Below are positions 35,214-62,374 of a stretch of 64,000 nt of DNA, piece after piece (the first letter of the stretch is position 1; every line of letters begins with the position of its first letter). The notes below the pieces were generated by a model. That model saw only the letters and a program-made list of their open reading frames with translations. It did not search any database and was not told the DNA's origin. This stretch comes from Escherichia coli (GTDB taxonomy: Bacteria > Pseudomonadota > Gammaproteobacteria > Enterobacterales > Enterobacteriaceae). Where the stretch lies: NCBI RefSeq assembly GCF_017348835.2, contig NZ_CP071375.1. One strand, written 5' to 3'. The position numbers and the translations under genes are program-made.

Positions 35214-36815
35214 ATGACTGAACAGGCAACAACAACCGATGAACTGGCTTTCACAAGGCCTTATGGCGAGCAGGAGAAGCAAATTCTTACTGCCGAAGCG
35301 GTAGAATTTCTGACTGAGCTGGTGACGCATTTTACGCCACAACGCAATAAACTTCTGGCGGCGCGTATTCAGCAGCAGCAAGATATTGATAACGGAACGT
35401 TGCCTGATTTTATTTCGGAAACAGCTTCCATTCGTGATACAGACTGGAAAATTCGTGGTATTCCCGCGGACTTACAAGATCGTCGAGTCGAGATAACTGG
35501 CCCGGTTGAGCGCAAGATGGTGATCAACGCACTCAACGCCAATGTGAAAGTCTTTATGGCCGATTTCGAAGATTCACTGGCACCAGACTGGAACAAAGTG
35601 ATCGACGGGCAAATAAACCTGCGTGATGCAGTTAACGGCACCATCAGCTATACCAATGAAGCAGGCAAAATTTATCAGCTCAAGCCCAATCCAGCGGTTT
35701 TGATTTGTCGGGTACGCGGTCTGCACTTGCCGGAAAAACATGTCACCTGGCGTGGTGAGGCAATCCCCGGTAGCCTGTTTGATTTTGTGCTCTATTTCTT
35801 CCACAACTATCAGGCACTGTTGGCAAAGGGCAGCGGTCCCTATTTCTATCTGCCGAAAACCCAGTCCTGGCAGGAAGCGGCCTGGTGGAGCGAAGTCTTC
35901 AGCTATGCAGAAGATCGCTTTAATCTGCCGCGCGGCACCATCAAGGCGACGTTGCTGATTGAAACGCTGCCCGCCGTGTTCCAGATGGACGAAATCCTTC
36001 ACGCACTGCGTGACCATATTGTTGGTCTGAACTGCGGTCGTTGGGATTACATCTTCAGTTATATCAAAACGTTGAAAAACTATCCCGATCGCGTCCTGCC
36101 AGACAGACAGGCAGTGACGATGGATAAACCATTCCTGAATGCTTACTCACGCCTGTTAATCAAAACCTGCCATAAACGCGGTGCTTTTGCGATGGGCGGC
36201 ATGGCGGCGTTTATTCCGAGCAAAGATGAAGAGCGCAATAACCAGGTGCTCAACAAAGTAAAAGCGGATAAATCGCTGGAAGCCAACAACGGTCACGATG
36301 GCACATGGATCGCTCACCCAGGCCTTGCGGATACGGCAATGGCGGTATTCAACGACATTCTCGGCTCCCGTAAAAATCAGCTTGAAGTGATGCGCGAACA
36401 AGACGCGCCGATTACTGCCAATCAGCTACTGGCACCTTGTGATGGTGAACGCACCGAAGAAGGTATGCGCGCCAACATTCGCGTGGCTGTGCAGTACATC
36501 GAAGCGTGGATCTCCGGCAACGGCTGCGTGCCGATTTATGGCCTGATGGAAGATGCGGCGACGGCTGAAATTTCCCGTACCTCGATCTGGCAGTGGATCC
36601 ATCATCAAAAAACGTTGAGCAATGGCAAACCGGTGACCAAAGCCTTGTTCCGCCAGATGCTGGGCGAAGAGATGAAAGTCATTGCCAGCGAACTGGGCGA
36701 AGAACGTTTCTCCCAGGGGCGTTTTGACGATGCCGCACGCTTGATGGAACAGATCACCACTTCCGATGAGTTAATTGATTTCCTGACCCTGCCAGGCTAC
36801 CGCCTGTTAGCGTAA
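35214..36815 (+). CDS. aceB: Malate synthase A
   Basis: 533 aa from [21 protein letters not shown]; first gene of aceBAK. Confidence 0.95.
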
Positions 36816-56319: not shown

Positions 56320-57192
56320 ATGCTGCCCGACTCATCAGTCCGTTTAAATAAATACATCAGCGAAAGCGGAATTTGCTCACGCCGCGAAGCGGATCGCTAT
56401 ATCGAGCAAGGCAATGTGTTCCTTAATGGCAAGCGAGCCACCATTGGCGATCAGGTGAAACCCGGCGACGTTGTGAAAGTAAACGGTCAGTTGATTGAGC
56501 CTCGGGAAGCCGAAGATTTGGTACTTATCGCCTTGAACAAGCCCGTCGGTATTGTCAGCACCACCGAAGATGGCGAGCGCGATAACATTGTCGATTTCGT
56601 TAACCACAGCAAACGCGTGTTCCCGATTGGTCGTCTGGATAAAGATTCCCAGGGGCTGATTTTCCTCACCAACCACGGTGATCTGGTGAATAAGATCCTG
56701 CGTGCTGGCAATGATCATGAAAAAGAGTATTTGGTAACGGTCGATAAACCGATTACCGATGAATTTATTCGTGGTATGGGGGCGGGAGTGCCGATCCTCG
56801 GGACGGTGACGAAAAAGTGCAAAGTCAAAAAAGAAGCACCGTTTGTCTTCCGCATTACCCTGGTGCAGGGGTTGAACCGTCAGATCCGTCGCATGTGCGA
56901 GCACTTTGGTTACGAAGTGAAAAAGCTGGAACGTACGCGCATTATGAACGTCAGCTTAAGCGGCATTCCGCTGGGTGAGTGGCGCGATTTAACTGACGAT
57001 GAGTTAATCGACCTCTTTAAGCTCATCGAAAATTCCTCTTCCGAGGCAAAACCTAAAGCGAAGGCCAAACCGAAAACAGCGGGCATCAAACGTCCAGTCG
57101 TTAAGATGGAAAAAACGGCGGAAAAAGGCGGTCGCCCGGCGTCCAACGGTAAGCGTTTTACCTCGCCGGGGCGAAAAAAGAAGGGGCGCTAA
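56320..57192 (+). CDS. rluF: 23S rRNA pseudouridine synthase F
   Basis: 290-aa ORF with S4 domain and RsuA-type catalytic core; Lys/Ala-rich tail. Confidence 0.93.
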
Positions 57193-57465
57193 TCAGCGCC
57201 TGCCGCGCGTCGACGTATTTGCTGACCAGCTAAATGACGCTTCAGGATCCGGTTTATAAGCCTGCTTTTTCTTTAACTGGCGGGCTTTTTTCGCTTCAGC
57301 CTCACGCTCGACCATTAATTTATCGATGTACTCTTTCTTAATGCTGTTGGTTTCGGAGTTGGTCAGTACGCGACCATGCGCAATCCGCGCCCGATCCAGC
57401 AGTGTTTTAAGTTCACGTTGCTCGCGTTCAGTCATCTCTTTTTGAGTAATACGGGGGAGTGCCAT
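57193..57465 (-). CDS. yjbD: DUF3811-family small protein
   Basis: 90-aa ORF; its stop codon abuts the rluF stop codon. Confidence 0.85.
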   Translation of the reverse strand: MALPRITQKEMTEREQRELKTLLDRARIAHGRVLTNSETNSIKKEYIDKLMVEREAEAKKARQLKKKQAYKPDPEASFSWSANTSTRGRR

Positions 57466-57678
57466 GATGGTGCCCTCAGTGAGCCAGAGAGTTCAGTGTA
57501 CGGGAATTCGTTTGCGAGCAGAACTGATAATATTCCTTTGTTCTCTTCTTAAATATTTATCTTTCTTGATAATTGACGATAAATACAGATACAAATTTAG
57601 CGAAAAAATCTCCCCCTACAAACAACAATGATTTATTAAATCTTTATTTTTCATGTAATTAAAATTTTTTATCACTTC

Positions 57679-57694
57679 TGGCACGCTTCTCGCA
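57679..57694 (+). promoter_or_regulatory. Candidate sigma-54-type promoter ~300 nt upstream of the SPFH gene
   Basis: TGGCACGCTTCTCGCA with GG-N10-GC spacing; motif match only. Confidence 0.3.
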
Positions 57695-57993
57695 ATAACA
57701 CTTTTGCGTTGATACTGAATTACAAAGGGGGTTAAACCCCGTCGGCACACCAGGAACGGCCAGGCTGTTTTCCGGGCGTGTTCCGTCAGCCTTTGACGCC
57801 AATTACGGGTTCGATTCCCACATTCATTCCTGAAATGAATACTGGTTGTAACTTATTAAATAAAAAATGAGGGATTGCGCAGTCTGCGGTCCCCGATAAC
57901 GTCACCGATAAAGATGCCGGGTAACAGGCAAAAGGGAATTCCCCTGTCGCTTCGTGTCTGCTTCCGCGACGGCTATTAAGCAAGGAATAGATA

Positions 57994-59121
57994 ATGATTA
58001 AAAAAATAAGCGTAAGAAAAGATCAGCTGGCATTACTCTCCAGAAACGGCGATTACTACAAAGTGCTGCATGCAGGCGAGCATATTTTACCCTGGTTAAA
58101 TACCCCGGAAGTGTTGCTGATTACGCTGGATGGTAGCGAAGTTCCCGACGTGCTTGCGGATTATTTGCGCCGCTTTCAGCCTGATTGGGTGGAGAAATAT
58201 TGCCTGGTGGCAGACTTGTCGGAGACTGAAGCCGGGGTGTTGTATATGGACGGTATTTTGTTGGAGATCCTGCCGCCATCAACGCGTCGTTTGTACTGGC
58301 GTGTAGAGGATGATTTGACGCTGGTGCGGATGAATACGCAGCAAGTCCCGGTACAAACGGAGGTGATGAATGCGGTATTACAGCCACGGCGCAAAGGAGT
58401 TGTTAAAGGCCGCGATGCGATACTGACGGTGCAGGTTCCGGCCTGGCATGTAGGCGTGCTGAAAATCGATGGTGAAACGCAGGCGCTGTTACCGCCGGGG
58501 CTGACTGCGTACTGGAAAATAAATCATCTGGTTGAAGCTGAAGTTGTCGACACCCGCTTGCAGGTACTGGAAGTCAGCGGGCAAGAAATCTTAACGAAAG
58601 ATAAGGTCAATCTGCGGATTAATCTCGCCGCTAACTGGCGCTATAGCGATGTGTTGCTGGCATTTAGTCAGCTAACGAAGCCGATTGATCATTTGTATCG
58701 GGAATTACAATTTGCCCTGCGTGAAGCGGTAGGTACGCGCACACTGGATGAACTGCTGGAAGATAAACAGGTCATTGATGACGTTGTTAGCGAGCAGGTG
58801 AAACTACGCATGAAGCCGTTCGGTATGGAGATCGCTTCGTTAGGAGTAAAAGATATCGTCCTGCCTGGCGATATGAAAAATATTCTTGCGCAACTGGTAG
58901 AGGCGGAGAAATCCGCGCAGGCCAATGTGATTCGCCGACGTGAAGAAACGGCAGCGACGCGCTCGTTACTGAACACCGCCAAAGTCATGGAGAACAATCC
59001 GGTAGCGTTGCGTTTAAAAGAGCTGGAAACGCTGGAGAGAGTGGCTGAGCGGATTGATAACATCTCTGTATTTGGCGGTCTGGATCAGGTTCTGCATGGG
59101 TTGGTTAATATCAAAGGGTGA
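57994..59121 (+). CDS. SPFH/band-7 (stomatin-like) domain protein with an unassigned ~180-aa N-terminal region
   Basis: 375-aa ORF with RBS. C-terminal half (GQEILTKDKVNLRINLAANWRY...IASLGVKDIVLPGDMKNILAQLVEAEKSAQANVIRRRE...) is stomatin/prohibitin-like. No obvious transmembrane helix. Confidence 0.7.
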   Translation: MIKKISVRKDQLALLSRNGDYYKVLHAGEHILPWLNTPEVLLITLDGSEVPDVLADYLRRFQPDWVEKYCLVADLSETEAGVLYMDGILLEILPPSTRRLYWRVEDDLTLVRMNTQQVPVQTEVMNAVLQPRRKGVVKGRDAILTVQVPAWHVGVLKIDGETQALLPPGLTAYWKINHLVEAEVVDTRLQVLEVSGQEILTKDKVNLRINLAANWRYSDVLLAFSQLTKPIDHLYRELQFALREAVGTRTLDELLEDKQVIDDVVSEQVKLRMKPFGMEIASLGVKDIVLPGDMKNILAQLVEAEKSAQANVIRRREETAATRSLLNTAKVMENNPVALRLKELETLERVAERIDNISVFGGLDQVLHGLVNIKG

Positions 59122-59126
59122 GTAAC

Positions 59127-59918
59127 ATGCCATTAAATGGAGTCAGTGCTGCGATGCGCGAAAGGGTATCGCAGCAGTTAAAAGAAATTGAACGTCGCTA
59201 TGGCGTGAAAGTGCTGTACGCCTGCGAATCGGGGAGTCGCGGCTGGGGATTTGCTTCGCCCGACAGCGATTACGATGTGCGGTTTTTGTATGTCCATCCG
59301 CTGGAATGGTATCTGCGGGTAGAGGCACCACGCGATGTTATCGAACTGCCCATCGACGACGAGTTAGATGTTTCCGGTTGGGAATGGCGCAAAGCGCTGG
59401 GATTGCTGAAAGGTGCGAATCCCACGCTAATTGAATGGCTGGATTCACCGGTGGTCTATCAGCAAGATGAAGAGACGATAACGGCGCTTAAGGCAATGGT
59501 CCCAACGTGGTTTTCTCCGTTGCGTGCGCGCTGGCATTACTATTCGATGGCGCAGAAAAACTTCCGCGGATATTTGCAGGGCGATGAAGTTCGACTGAAA
59601 AAATACTTTTACGTGCTGCGTCCGTTGCTGGCCGTGCGTTGGGTTGAAGCGGGAAAAGGCGTACCGCCAATGCGTTTTTCCGAATTGCTGGCGGGAAGTG
59701 AGTTGGATGCGGCCTTACGCGCAGAAATAGATGAATTACTGGAACGTAAACAGCGTGCGGGTGAAGCGGAATATGGCCCACGCCGTCCATTGCTACATGC
59801 GTTTATCCATGCGGAACTGGCGCGTGGGGAAATTCCGCCTGTGTTACCGGATAGTAGAGAAGGGGACGTTAAGAAACTGGATAGCTTACTGTACCAGACG
59901 GTAATGCGCCGGGCGTGA
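59127..59918 (+). CDS. Pol-beta-superfamily nucleotidyltransferase
   Basis: 263 aa from ATG 59127 (a GTG at 59118 would overlap the upstream stop by 4 nt); motif GSRGWGFASPDSDYDV fits GS-x10-DhDh. Confidence 0.7.
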   Translation: MPLNGVSAAMRERVSQQLKEIERRYGVKVLYACESGSRGWGFASPDSDYDVRFLYVHPLEWYLRVEAPRDVIELPIDDELDVSGWEWRKALGLLKGANPTLIEWLDSPVVYQQDEETITALKAMVPTWFSPLRARWHYYSMAQKNFRGYLQGDEVRLKKYFYVLRPLLAVRWVEAGKGVPPMRFSELLAGSELDAALRAEIDELLERKQRAGEAEYGPRRPLLHAFIHAELARGEIPPVLPDSREGDVKKLDSLLYQTVMRRA

Positions 59919-59933
59919 TGCCCGGCGTTATTT
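59908..59933. terminator. Bidirectional terminator-like hairpin between convergent genes
   Basis: cgccgggc-gtga-gcccggcg followed by TTATTT; spans the nucleotidyltransferase stop codon. Confidence 0.6.
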
Positions 59934-59950
59934 CAGGTCATCAGCTTTTA

Positions 59951-60880
59951 TTATTCTTGTGCACTTCCGCTGATTTCATTTTGTATATGCGTTGCAATAT
60001 CGCAATTGGTTGCCGCTTGTGAACTAAATATCATCTTCTCACGCGAATACACCGCAAACTTATCTGCCAGGTTTGAAGCAAACACCTTGCTGGCATTTTC
60101 TGCTAGCAAATCGGTAACGATATCATGGTGATTTTTATCCACTTTGCGGGCGATATTTCCCGCCTCTTTGTCCTTATTATACCCTTCGTTGGTGCTTTCC
60201 CAGCTTAATGCCGCTGAGGTGGTTTTTATCATGACTTCTGTTCGGTAGCCTGCATCTTTGAGTTTTTTTAATGTTTGTAGCGGCGTAGCGGCATTACGAA
60301 ATGTTCCTTCGACAACAATATTGAGTTTATTGGCTATGGCCCTCTCTATTGCACGTTCGACCGTTTCGCCGGAAAATTTTGCCGTATGGGTAACAAAATC
60401 GTCGCCATAAGTTTGATATATATAATTAAAATCAGGGTGTAGAAATCTGAAATCATCACCATTAATAATCATTATATTATTCTTTGTTTCCCTTTTTGCT
60501 AATTCGATTAGGGCGGATTTTCCGGCTCCTGGTTGTCCACCTAAAACAAAACCAATGGGACTCTGCTGGGATGTGACGTCATGGTTTGTCAGACGCTGCC
60601 AAATAGAATCAAAAGACGCTTTATTTTCTGAATGCGCAGTATTATTAAATTCACGCTGATACTTTTTTCTGACCTGCTGGAGGCGTAACTTTCCCTGTGT
60701 AAAATCAACAAGTTCTGCTGGAGTGGAATAAAGATTGTCGCGATAGCTGACTAATTGTGATAGCTCATCGTCTGAGTCCTGAACTTGTGAGGAAAAACAA
60801 CTGTCGACGATATTTGATAAAAACGCGATGCACTGACTGGTGCCGTTTAAAAGTGCATCTTTTTCCATTAAAGTAGCCAT
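59951..60880 (-). CDS. Zeta-toxin-family kinase with ~100-aa N-terminal extension (EzeT-like)
   Basis: 309 aa from ATG 60880 with AGGAG RBS; Walker A GGQPGAGKS ~115 residues from the N-terminus; AT-rich codon usage. Confidence 0.65.
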   Translation of the reverse strand: MATLMEKDALLNGTSQCIAFLSNIVDSCFSSQVQDSDDELSQLVSYRDNLYSTPAELVDFTQGKLRLQQVRKKYQREFNNTAHSENKASFDSIWQRLTNHDVTSQQSPIGFVLGGQPGAGKSALIELAKRETKNNIMIINGDDFRFLHPDFNYIYQTYGDDFVTHTAKFSGETVERAIERAIANKLNIVVEGTFRNAATPLQTLKKLKDAGYRTEVMIKTTSAALSWESTNEGYNKDKEAGNIARKVDKNHHDIVTDLLAENASKVFASNLADKFAVYSREKMIFSSQAATNCDIATHIQNEISGSAQE

Positions 60881-60981
60881 TAACACTCCTGTTAAATAAT
60901 ATTTTTCGGTGATTATAATACTGTTCTACAGGAGTGATTTTGCATTTCAGATATTATTTAATCTATGTTTGCAGTGAGGAT

Positions 60982-61024: not shown

Positions 61025-62374
61025 TTACTCAAACAAATTACTATGCAGTTTTTGCACCACCTGCTCGGCATCTTCGCCGGGCACCAGGAAGCACAGGTTA
61101 TGGCTGGATGCGCCGTAACAAATCATGCGAATGTTGAACGGTTCCAGTACGCCGAATACCTCTTTGCCAACGCCGCAGGCTTTTGACAGGTCATTGCCAA
61201 TCAACGCGACCAGCGCCAGACCTTCTTCTACTTCCACCCGGCACAGTGCGGAAAGCTCCATCAGCAGAGATTGCGTCAGCAACGTATCGCCAGTGGAGGT
61301 TGAACCGGTGGTATCAAGGGTTAATGCCACGCTCACTTCTGACGTGGTGATTAAGTCTACCGAAATATTATGCCGCGCGAGGATGCCGAAAACTTCCGCG
61401 AGGAAGCCGCGAGAATGCAGCATATTCAGGCTGTGCAAAGTGAGCAGAGTCTGATTGCGACGAAGCGCCAGCGCGCGGAACAGCGGCGGATTTTCAGTTT
61501 TATTGCATACCAGCGTACCACCTGCGCGTGGGTCTTTGCTGGAGCCGACAAAGACCGGGATATCGCTGCGTACTGCGGGTAGCAATGTTGCCGGATGCAG
61601 TACTTTTGCACCAAAAGTTGCCATCTCTGCTGCTTCGGCAAACGCGATTTCATCAATGCGTTTTGCTGCGGAAACCACGCGTGGATCGGTGGTGTAGATG
61701 CCCGGGACGTCGGTCCAGATATCAACACGAGATGCGTGTAAAGCCTCCGCCAGCAAGGCTGCCGTATAATCGCTGCCTCCACGGCCAAGCGTCGTTGTAC
61801 GACCTTTATTTTCGCTACCGATAAATCCCTGGGTGATCACTAAACCTTCATTGAGACGTGGGAGCAGCTGCAGCGCGGCCAGTTCCGCCAGCGCGGCTAT
61901 ATCTGGCTCTGCACGACCAAATCGGTCGTTGGTACGCATCACTTTACGTACATCAAACCACTGTGCCTGAACATCGCGTTCGCGCAGGATCTCAACAAAC
62001 AGCAGGGTCGACATCAGCTCGCCGTGGCTGACCAGCTCATCTGTCAGCGCCGGAGACGTTGCCAGCGCCGCCGCTTCTGCCAGAACAGTAATGTTCTCCA
62101 GCAGACGTTCAATCTCTTCACGGATAACGTTCGGGTAACGCAGACGTTCCAGAATGGCAAACTGGATGTTGCGAATAGCGTCGAGTTTTTCGAATCGCTC
62201 GCCAGGTTCCAGCCCTTCCGCTAAAGCGACCAGCAGATTAGTGATACCAGCAGAAGCCGAGAGGACAACTAAACGCACGTTGGCATCAGAAAGCACAATA
62301 TCAGCGCTGCGGTTCATGGCGTCAAAATCAGCTACGCTGGTACCGCCAAATTTGGAGACAACAATTTCAGACAT
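61025..62374 (-). CDS. lysC: Lysine-sensitive aspartokinase III
   Basis: 449-aa ORF MSEIVVSKFGGTSVADFDAMNRSADIVL... with C-terminal ACT domains. Confidence 0.96.
   Translation of the reverse strand: MSEIVVSKFGGTSVADFDAMNRSADIVLSDANVRLVVLSASAGITNLLVALAEGLEPGERFEKLDAIRNIQFAILERLRYPNVIREEIERLLENITVLAEAAALATSPALTDELVSHGELMSTLLFVEILRERDVQAQWFDVRKVMRTNDRFGRAEPDIAALAELAALQLLPRLNEGLVITQGFIGSENKGRTTTLGRGGSDYTAALLAEALHASRVDIWTDVPGIYTTDPRVVSAAKRIDEIAFAEAAEMATFGAKVLHPATLLPAVRSDIPVFVGSSKDPRAGGTLVCNKTENPPLFRALALRRNQTLLTLHSLNMLHSRGFLAEVFGILARHNISVDLITTSEVSVALTLDTTGSTSTGDTLLTQSLLMELSALCRVEVEEGLALVALIGNDLSKACGVGKEVFGVLEPFNIRMICYGASSHNLCFLVPGEDAEQVVQKLHSNLFE

Follow-up and report, generated by a model that had tools for sequence, protein, structure and literature searches.

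Within a 64,000-nt stretch of an Escherichia coli chromosome (contig NZ_CP071375.1 of RefSeq assembly GCF_017348835.2; hereafter the window), a gene pair between yjbD and lysC encodes an SPFH/Band-7 protein and a nucleotidyltransferase (NTase) of the DNA polymerase beta (Pol-beta) type. We conclude that this island is probably a reduced rtc-type RNA-repair module, made up of a leader RNA, an SPFH scaffold and the NTase RlaP, and not a signalling system. The whole unit (promoter, structured RNA, scaffold and NTase) spans ~2.4 kb. The conclusion draws on domain identities, promoter and motif conservation, RNA covariation, gene linkage across taxa and purifying selection, all examined here. An earlier note on the window had picked out the gene pair and suggested a conflict or stress module, for instance one in which nucleotide signalling or nucleotidylation works with a membrane-scaffold effector; it had missed a conserved leader RNA and a sigma54 promoter directly upstream.

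The two genes lie on the same strand and are as tightly spaced as the earlier note had stated (6 nt or less): between the TGA of the SPFH gene (57994-59121, + strand; 375 aa) and the ATG of rlaP (59127-59918, + strand; 263 aa; the ATG at 59127 is the RefSeq start) there are 5 nt, and the other possible rlaP start, a GTG at 59118, would overlap that TGA (GTGA). When the window allele was compared with the allele common in E. coli (strain SE11), dN/dS was 0.060 for the SPFH gene (dS 0.22) and 0.043 for rlaP (dS 0.43). Therefore the open reading frames (ORFs) are not there by chance, and both are real genes under purifying selection. The island was present in 1631 of 5426 complete E. coli genomes (30%), always on the chromosome and at the yjbD-lysC site, which agrees with the strain-variable block described earlier. 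SE11 and the O104:H4 strain FDAARGOS_348 are among the carriers, and K-12 is without it. The unit was intact in 1624 of the 1631 carriers (99.6%), intact meaning at least 80% of leader, SPFH gene and rlaP in one piece.

The second protein is a full-length member of the RlaP family (PF10127; residues 13-259 against positions 1-248 of the 249-position model, E = 1.3e-96), which Pfam describes as "RNA repair pathway DNA polymerase beta family", and it also matched PHROG 14344 (E = 9e-123). Thus the profile search upheld the earlier assignment to Pol-beta-type NTases with a GS-x10-DhDh active site and named the family. G36-S37, the ten residues' spacing, D48-Y-D50-V and a third carboxylate (D81) were invariant in 12 orthologues, so that the Pol-beta signature (hG[GS]...DxD plus third carboxylate) is complete and the active site intact. 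The generic NTP_transf_2 and Polbeta profiles were insignificant on this protein (E 0.3-0.5), PADLOC gave no match for either protein of the pair, and no structure in the PDB was detectable from the RlaP sequence. The activity of the family is taken from the literature, namely from in vitro work on Pseudomonas orthologues: a preprint of December 2025 by Carruthers, Fatma and Huang described the RlaPs of P. fluorescens and P. aeruginosa, whose genes stand between rtcB and rtcA, as using RNA as their sole substrate, adding one to two nucleoside monophosphates onto RNA 3'-OH ends with a preference for damaged RNAs, and being able to restore aminoacylation of a repaired tRNA that had lacked one nucleotide; the authors proposed RlaP to be an antidote to "smart" ribotoxins, which cut and then trim (10.64898/2025.12.29.696909). 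By analogy with these orthologues, E. coli RlaP would add nucleotides to RNA 3' ends. Our homologue search found RlaP to be common in Pseudomonas jumbo phages, as PMC7824862 has also noted.

The first protein carries a Pfam Band_7 domain at residues 147-318 (E = 7.6e-24), in the C-terminal half where the earlier note had seen it, and this SPFH domain (of a "slipin") is supported both by sequence and by fold. Of the N-terminal ~180 residues, which that note had found unrecognisable and devoid of a transmembrane helix, residues 1-146 matched nothing in Pfam, NCBIfam, PADLOC or PHROGs. No transmembrane-like segment or hydrophobic hairpin was found in the protein (maximal Kyte-Doolittle 19-mer score 1.0), and only 2 of 39 aligned family members exceeded a score of 1.6, in segments that were internal and not N-terminal. 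Thus the N-terminal membrane anchor typical of stomatin, HflK/C, prohibitin and flotillin is absent, and the protein is predicted to be soluble and anchor-less, which takes away the membrane part of the proposed membrane-scaffold effector.

AlphaFold models of the monomer were confident (pLDDT 88.9 over the full length and 90.9 over the N-terminal half) and predict beta-rich repeats at ~3-69, 70-129 and 143-174, the SPFH domain at ~180-290 and long helices at 291-353, which bear the near-invariant motif RRREETAATRSLLNTAK...RLKELE. The family is large and distinct (545 representatives after 50% clustering at E<=1e-30), and most representatives align end to end, the N-terminal half included. In structural comparison the fold resembled stomatin and the major vault protein (MVP); in the PDB comparison stomatin, HflK and prohibitin matched the C-terminal ~230 columns only. 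The comparison with MVP was mixed, and an MVP-like reading of the protein is suggestive but not established; an identity of the N-terminal half as "MVP repeats", tested alone, gave marginal scores only and is not claimed. Many family members (P0122, P0125, P0127, P0137 and others; loci L022, L033 and L058-L073) are 500-660 aa long, and their extra N-terminal ~140-290 residues match the N-terminal repeats of the window protein a second or third time; the number of beta-repeats therefore varies, as in a modular wall protein. No phage homologues of the SPFH protein were found, and a prophage origin of the scaffold was dropped for that reason.

Gene neighbourhoods across bacteria placed the SPFH gene in rtc operons. 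A scan of species genomes yielded 80 loci (Enterobacterales, Pseudomonas, Burkholderiales, Rhodocyclales, Neisseriales, Orbales, Cyanobacteria and Myxococcota), and partners were counted in the 56 loci with adequate flanks, by tblastn with queries verified by NCBIfam (RtcR, RtcB and RtcA; RtcR, for example, scored 768 bits against a cutoff of 650). The SPFH gene was preceded by a T-loop-bearing RNA in 51 of these 56 loci (91%) and accompanied by RtcB in 42 (75%), by a divergently transcribed RtcR in 37 (66%), by RlaP in 23 (41%) and by RtcA in 15 (27%). The usual order was rtcR <-> RNA-SPFH-RtcB-RlaP-(RtcA), with RtcB preceding RlaP in 20 of the 23 loci that contain RlaP, and full-length SPFH orthologues of 42-81% identity were found within rtc operons. 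From these partner counts, the SPFH-RlaP pairing is real yet secondary, and the constant partners of the scaffold are the RNA and the ligase. The co-inheritance of the two genes that the earlier note had presumed thus holds within E. coli, where nearly all carriers keep the unit intact, but is a secondary trait across taxa.

An SPFH gene directly beside rlaP, without RtcB, was found only in Superficieibacter, Mangrovibacter, Pseudocitrobacter, Hafnia and E. coli, and related Enterobacterales hold a fuller operon, rtcR <-> RNA-SPFH-(RtcB)-RlaP, at the same rluF-yjbD...lysC-pgi site; the RtcB-less adjacency is a derived state. No E. coli genome has the full arrangement. On the other hand, the canonical rtcR-rtcB locus is present in 4838 of the 5426 E. 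coli genomes (89%), and its RtcR is 57-72% identical to SPFH-linked RtcRs, the C-terminal region included. In a comparison with the RtcR genes of L003-L051, L011 and L012, the canonical E. coli RtcR (L083:1005-2603) shared 69-72% of its amino acids with the SPFH-linked RtcRs of Chitinimonas and Pseudomonas, and 60-63% with those of fellow Enterobacterales; these identities hint that rtc loci have moved by horizontal transfer.

Several further observations came from the neighbourhood scan. Two clusters of antisense ORFs in high-GC loci (C2 and C11) proved to be mis-annotations by naive ORF calling and were discarded, tblastn being used instead. In Aliikangiella marina, a match to the GOLLD RNA just short of the gathering score (L064:10966-11421; 146.6 bits against 150, E = 5.5e-39) lies in an array of 17 tRNAs (L064:7986-11697) directly downstream of the SPFH gene. 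One SPFH-rtc locus, identical flanking genes included, recurs on three contigs (L022, L023 and L024) of the Gilliamella sp. wkB308 assembly, which is either a triplication or an assembly artefact.

The 528-nt spacer between yjbD and the SPFH gene is 97% identical between E. coli alleles, the coding regions being 91-95% identical. It carries a sigma54-type -24/-12 promoter, TGGCACGCTTCTCGCA (57679-57694, + strand), recognised by pattern match and by conservation: the pattern TGGCAC-N5-TYGCW occurs twice in the window where 0.24 occurrences would be expected, its GG and GC elements are kept without exception by the 12 enterobacterial leaders compared, and the -24/-12 architecture recurs at the canonical E. 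coli rtcB promoter. The second exact match in the window is TGGCACATGGATCGCT (36299-36314, + strand). About 110 nt upstream of the promoter is a candidate upstream activating site for RtcR (57557-57582, + strand), consisting of the inverted repeat TTATC-N6-GATAA (57557-57572) and an extra GATAA (57578-57582). The inverted repeat occurs once in the window against 0.03 expected, and it also stands between rtcR and the sigma54 promoter in ~18 RtcR-linked loci of Enterobacterales, Pseudomonas, Burkholderia and Rhodocyclales, a distribution that would fit a site bound by RtcR. Between these two elements, ~15-20 nt upstream of the -24 box, an A/T-rich element, AATTAAAA (57657-57664, + strand), is kept in an alignment (A5) of the window, four related Enterobacterales and the canonical E. 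coli rtcR-rtcB intergenic region; it is possibly an IHF or bending site. These short elements were found by MAFFT alignment and motif searches, blastn giving no similarity between the island's upstream region and its relatives beyond ~57665. Promoter, upstream motif and leader are all more conserved than synonymous sites.

Downstream of the promoter, comparison with distant loci revealed a structured leader RNA of ~290 nt (57705-57993, + strand; its transcription start, at ~57705, and the ends of the RNA are predicted). In an alignment of 12 species (A3), its fold comprises 57 pairs in nine helices, with 93.6% of cells paired as compared to 42-47% in slid controls and 39 pairs changed on both sides as compared to 7-11 in the controls; moreover, none of 500 shuffles reached any of the five observed measures of the fold. 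Between the two E. coli alleles the leader differs at 5% of positions, against a synonymous divergence of 0.22-0.43. Covariation defines a 5' domain with the helices H1 (57714-57718/57786-57790), P1 (57724-57730/57737-57742), P2 (57744-57751/57775-57782) and P2b (57755-57760/57764-57769), and a 3' domain (~57869-57975), all on the + strand. Two other pairings were tried and rejected: i) RNAalifold paired the -24 promoter box with 57785-57789, yet transcription is predicted to start downstream of that box, and H1, which replaces this pairing inside the transcript, shows A-U/G-C covariation; ii) a GGAAC/GUUCC pairing for P2 was given up, the Providencia sequence backing the RNAalifold pairing instead with several double changes.

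Between the two domains the leader holds a tRNA T-arm (57806-57820, + strand; core GGG-UUCGAUU-CCC at 57807-57819), the sole remnant of a tRNA-like module. A covariance model built on 34 tRNA-like modules of other lineages (R1) matched the window only at this T-arm (model positions 57-69; 11.5 bits, E = 2e-4). A covariance model of the tRNA-like module reached 59-73 bits in loci of Neisseriales, Orbales, cyanobacteria and others, and found the T-arm alone in Enterobacterales. Upstream of SPFH genes the T-loop motif was enriched 58-fold on the coding strand (69 of 78 loci) and was not seen on the opposite strand. In other lineages, one or two tRNA-like modules follow the promoter, recognised by ARAGORN and by the Rfam tRNA model at 38-72 bits; their anticodon loops are aberrant or peculiar to the locus, and CCA is missing. 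The T-arm is followed by a predicted hairpin (AUUCAUU-CCUGA-AAUGAAU; 57822-57840, + strand), and a hairpin of differing sequence can be read by eye at the equivalent position in other Enterobacterales and, in beta- and gamma-proteobacteria, behind the tRNA-like module. We propose that the E. coli leader descends from the tRNA-like RNA of the full systems and has since diverged.

The relatives' RNAs overlap weak matches to YrlA (33 and 30 bits, the gathering score being 69); the window had no YrlA match (Rfam RF02553), and no TROVE gene was seen in the SPFH neighbourhoods. A short motif, CAGTACCCG(C)CGG, was noticed after the post-tRNA hairpin, ~40-60 nt past the tRNA-like module, in leaders of beta-proteobacteria (L011, L017, L020, L029 and L034), and also in some enterobacterial leaders (L004, L005 and L006), and was not found in E. 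coli or Phytobacter; its conservation means that the long leader holds further conserved elements.

The surroundings of the island in the window are, in order, a sorbose phosphotransferase system operon, rluF (56320-57192), yjbD (57193-57465, - strand), the island, lysC (61025-62374, - strand) and pgi. A hairpin resembling an intrinsic terminator (59906-59934, + strand; a 9-bp GC stem followed by UUAUUU) overlaps the stop codon of rlaP; it folds at -20.3 kcal/mol (z = -2.7) and was not listed by the consensus terminator scan. Converging on rlaP is a zeta/PezT-like P-loop kinase gene (59951-60886, - strand; 311 aa), which matched PHROG 25145 (E = 4.6e-169) and NF041574 at 124 bits, under the cutoff of 470, and which has no obvious antitoxin ORF adjoining it. 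The earlier note was right that a toxin-like gene stands here. A functional link with the pair does not follow: the zeta-like gene, which 1424 of the complete E. coli genomes carry along with the unit, is absent from all 80 non-E. coli SPFH loci, and in some E. coli, such as strain Res13-Lact-ER01-35, P2-like prophage (tail) genes take its place, so that it is a neighbour and no component. As to the history of the island itself, the flanks are less diverged between the window allele and that of SE11 (dS 0.13 for rluF and 0.04 for lysC) than the island genes, and the window's own allele is found at >=99% identity in only 4 of the 5426 genomes, which suggests either a polymorphism of long standing or an allele brought in from elsewhere.

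How the module may work can be sketched as follows; regulation in trans, the ribonucleoprotein (RNP) and the order of the steps are what we infer. A single transcript from the sigma54 promoter would comprise the ~290-nt structured leader, the SPFH gene and rlaP. RNA damage, such as tRNA or rRNA fragments left by ribotoxins, would activate the RtcR encoded elsewhere on the E. coli chromosome, and activated RtcR would turn on the island promoter in trans together with rtcBA. The anchor-less SPFH protein would then oligomerise, in the manner of SPFH and major vault proteins, to give a soluble ring or cage; on the model of Ro/Y-RNA and vault RNPs, it might join the leader-derived RNA in a platform on which broken RNAs are held. 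RlaP would restore one or two nucleotides at 3' ends trimmed by nucleases, and the ends would finally be sealed by a ligase acting in trans, most likely RtcB. A sharper version of this scheme, in which SPFH protein and leader-derived RNA form a soluble vault-like or Ro-like RNP that catches tRNAs or rRNA damaged by nucleases and offers the damaged ends to RlaP and to an RtcB acting in trans, the island being a minimised three-part version (RNA, scaffold and end-healing NTase) wired into the RtcR regulon, is put forward tentatively and is rather doubtful as a whole.

A number of observations weigh against the RNA-repair reading. At the level of regulation, a search for the exact TTATC-N6-GATAA motif between rtcR and rtcB at the canonical E. 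coli locus found none, which makes recognition of the island by the canonical RtcR uncertain. As for the leader, its single-sequence folding energy was no better than that of shuffles and its minimum free energy fold lacks the T-arm; since the single-sequence z-scores were insignificant, it is covariation that carries the structure claim. Moreover, ARAGORN and Rfam (E up to 10) gave no match on 57300-58100, and the leader is recognisably tRNA-like only in the 13 nt of the T-arm. The island contains neither a ligase gene nor rtcR, nor remnants of rtcR or rtcB, and no RtcB or other RNA ligase is encoded anywhere else in the window; the repair pathway is therefore locally incomplete and would have to rely on action in trans. 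The chemistry does not mesh readily either, for RlaP leaves a 3'-OH and RtcB needs a 3'-phosphate or cyclic phosphate, a mismatch flagged by the authors of the RlaP work themselves (10.64898/2025.12.29.696909). In 11 of the 56 loci, the SPFH gene and the RNA stand with no RtcB or RlaP within 6 kb, and the SPFH-RNA pair may therefore have a role other than repair as such. Finally, the sole genetic test that we found, deletion in P. aeruginosa of PaFlo8, an orthologue of the SPFH protein situated within the rtc locus of that species (PMC13086221), gave no phenotype in generic assays.

Three rival explanations were weighed. A nucleotide signal made by the NTase, or a target that it nucleotidylates, with the SPFH protein as membrane-scaffold effector of a CBASS-like or AbiE/MNT-like defence or stress module and the zeta toxin possibly taking part, is very unlikely. 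Such a system would be in keeping with an intact GS...DxD site in a Pol-beta NTase, with a strain-variable block adjoining a zeta-like gene and with the fact that SPFH proteins are mostly membrane scaffolds. However, Pfam places the NTase in RlaP (E in the range of 1e-96) with the generic profiles insignificant, neither protein is in PADLOC, the SPFH protein has no transmembrane segment or hydrophobic hairpin, the zeta gene is E. coli-only and dispensable, and the activity measured for RlaP in Pseudomonas is extension of RNA 3' ends. The enzyme is no CD-NTase of CBASS, with no SMODS-type match in Pfam or PADLOC, and no NTase of MNT/AbiEii toxin-antitoxin systems, its partner being an SPFH protein and not HEPN or AbiEi; across the 80 loci the conserved neighbours are RtcB, RtcR, RtcA and tRNA-like RNA, with no effectors or sensors. 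What survives of the earlier proposal is the sphere of conflict and stress, to which the module belongs.

The leader might instead act mainly in cis, its T-arm fold binding damaged or uncharged tRNA, or a protein, and so controlling translation or stability of the SPFH-rlaP message, with the SPFH protein serving only as a chaperone or scaffold for repair enzymes. The RNA does lie always in the 5' leader and on the coding strand, its covarying 3' domain stops a few nt before the ribosome-binding site, and neither consensus scan nor fold revealed a terminator between RNA and ORF. Elsewhere, however, the element consists of one or two near-complete tRNA-like cloverleaves, and tRNA-like elements are typically excised as stable RNAs, an example being the tRNA-like domain of the YrlA that Salmonella encodes in its rsr-yrlBA-rtcBA operon. 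Furthermore, SPFH gene and RNA stay together where no repair enzyme gene is nearby, suggesting a direct partnership, and we consider a mainly cis-acting leader improbable. More improbable still is an evolutionary leftover, that is, a fragment of an SPFH-rtc operon that has lost regulator and ligase and is not usefully expressed or has been co-opted, for example with RlaP tailing the leader or other RNAs for decay. The missing rtcR and rtcB, the decay of the cloverleaf to a T-arm and the absence of the island from 70% of strains speak for it; dN/dS of 0.04-0.06 at high synonymous divergence, a unit intact in almost every carrier, the conservation of promoter, upstream motif and leader beyond that of synonymous sites, and the recurrence of the RtcB-less SPFH-RlaP arrangement in Superficieibacter, Mangrovibacter, Pseudocitrobacter and Hafnia speak against it.

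An RNA-repair module would place the island in a type of system that is already known as a comparative-genomics prediction and of which one component, RlaP, is now biochemically characterised. The 2016 study of Burroughs and Aravind (NAR 44:8525) reportedly predicted repair operons made up of Band-7, tRNA-like noncoding RNA (ncRNA), RtcB and RlaP. Two later papers credit it with the association of Band-7/MVP-like protein, ncRNA, RtcB and RlaP (PMC13404743, PMC6514570), and the former ties bacterial MVP/Band-7 homologues, the ncRNAs of their operons and RtcB to RNA repair; the pair is therefore not the unnamed system for which the earlier note had taken it. The island shares with the predicted systems the SPFH family with N-terminal repeats, the RlaP family and an upstream RNA with a tRNA T-arm, and its orthologous loci carry RtcB, RtcR and RtcA. 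It differs from them in lacking all three of these genes, in an RNA that has lost the cloverleaf and has its own covariation-backed fold, and in lying, as a satellite, at the yjbD-lysC site, apart from the canonical rtcR-rtcBA locus. Thus what is particular to this locus is the ligase-less and regulator-less layout, the RtcR-type promoter architecture that was kept nonetheless, and the remodelled, T-arm-only leader RNA without an Rfam match; the enterobacterial form may already have been listed in the 2016 prediction.

Compared with the canonical E. coli rtcR-rtcBA locus, the island has the same sigma54 -24/-12 promoter after an A/T-rich element, and RtcR orthologues are common to both kinds of system; the canonical locus, however, has no SPFH gene, no RlaP and a leader of only ~40 nt, whereas the island has no ligase and no cyclase. 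The rtc locus of P. aeruginosa (rtcR | PaFlo8 - rtcB - rlaP - rtcA) encodes orthologues of both window proteins, and in the Pseudomonas loci analysed (L012, L015 and L041) the SPFH protein is 56-58% and RlaP ~59% identical to those of the window; the Pseudomonas locus is complete and has two canonical tRNA-like modules, whereas the E. coli locus is a minimal form. With the RNPs of Ro60 (TROVE) and Y RNA or YrlA, as in Salmonella rsr-yrlBA-rtcBA, the island would have in common a protein scaffold and a tRNA-like ncRNA in a repair operon that RtcR controls, but its scaffold has the SPFH fold and no TROVE, and YrlA matches were far below 69 bits in its relatives and nil in the window. Lastly, the SPFH protein resembles the eukaryotic vault (MVP plus vault RNA) in its domain order (N-terminal small beta repeats, an SPFH-like shoulder and long helices), aligning over the whole query, and in being associated with a small structured RNA.

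Against ribotoxins, among them colicins, anticodon nucleases and the RNases of toxin-antitoxin systems, RNA repair serves as a counter-defence. On the reading preferred here, 30% of E. coli strains hold a compact, selectively kept version of an RNA-repair system whose ligase and regulator are encoded elsewhere, and because these two are separate from the island, the contribution of each part is easy to test genetically. If the scaffold-RNA particle is not real, the locus would still be re-annotated as an accessory of the Rtc regulon and no new defence system. If it is real, it would bear on how vault and Ro RNPs arose and what they do, and the island would make E. coli a genetically tractable model of how SPFH/MVP-type cages handle small RNAs, which is a question for eukaryotic vaults as well.

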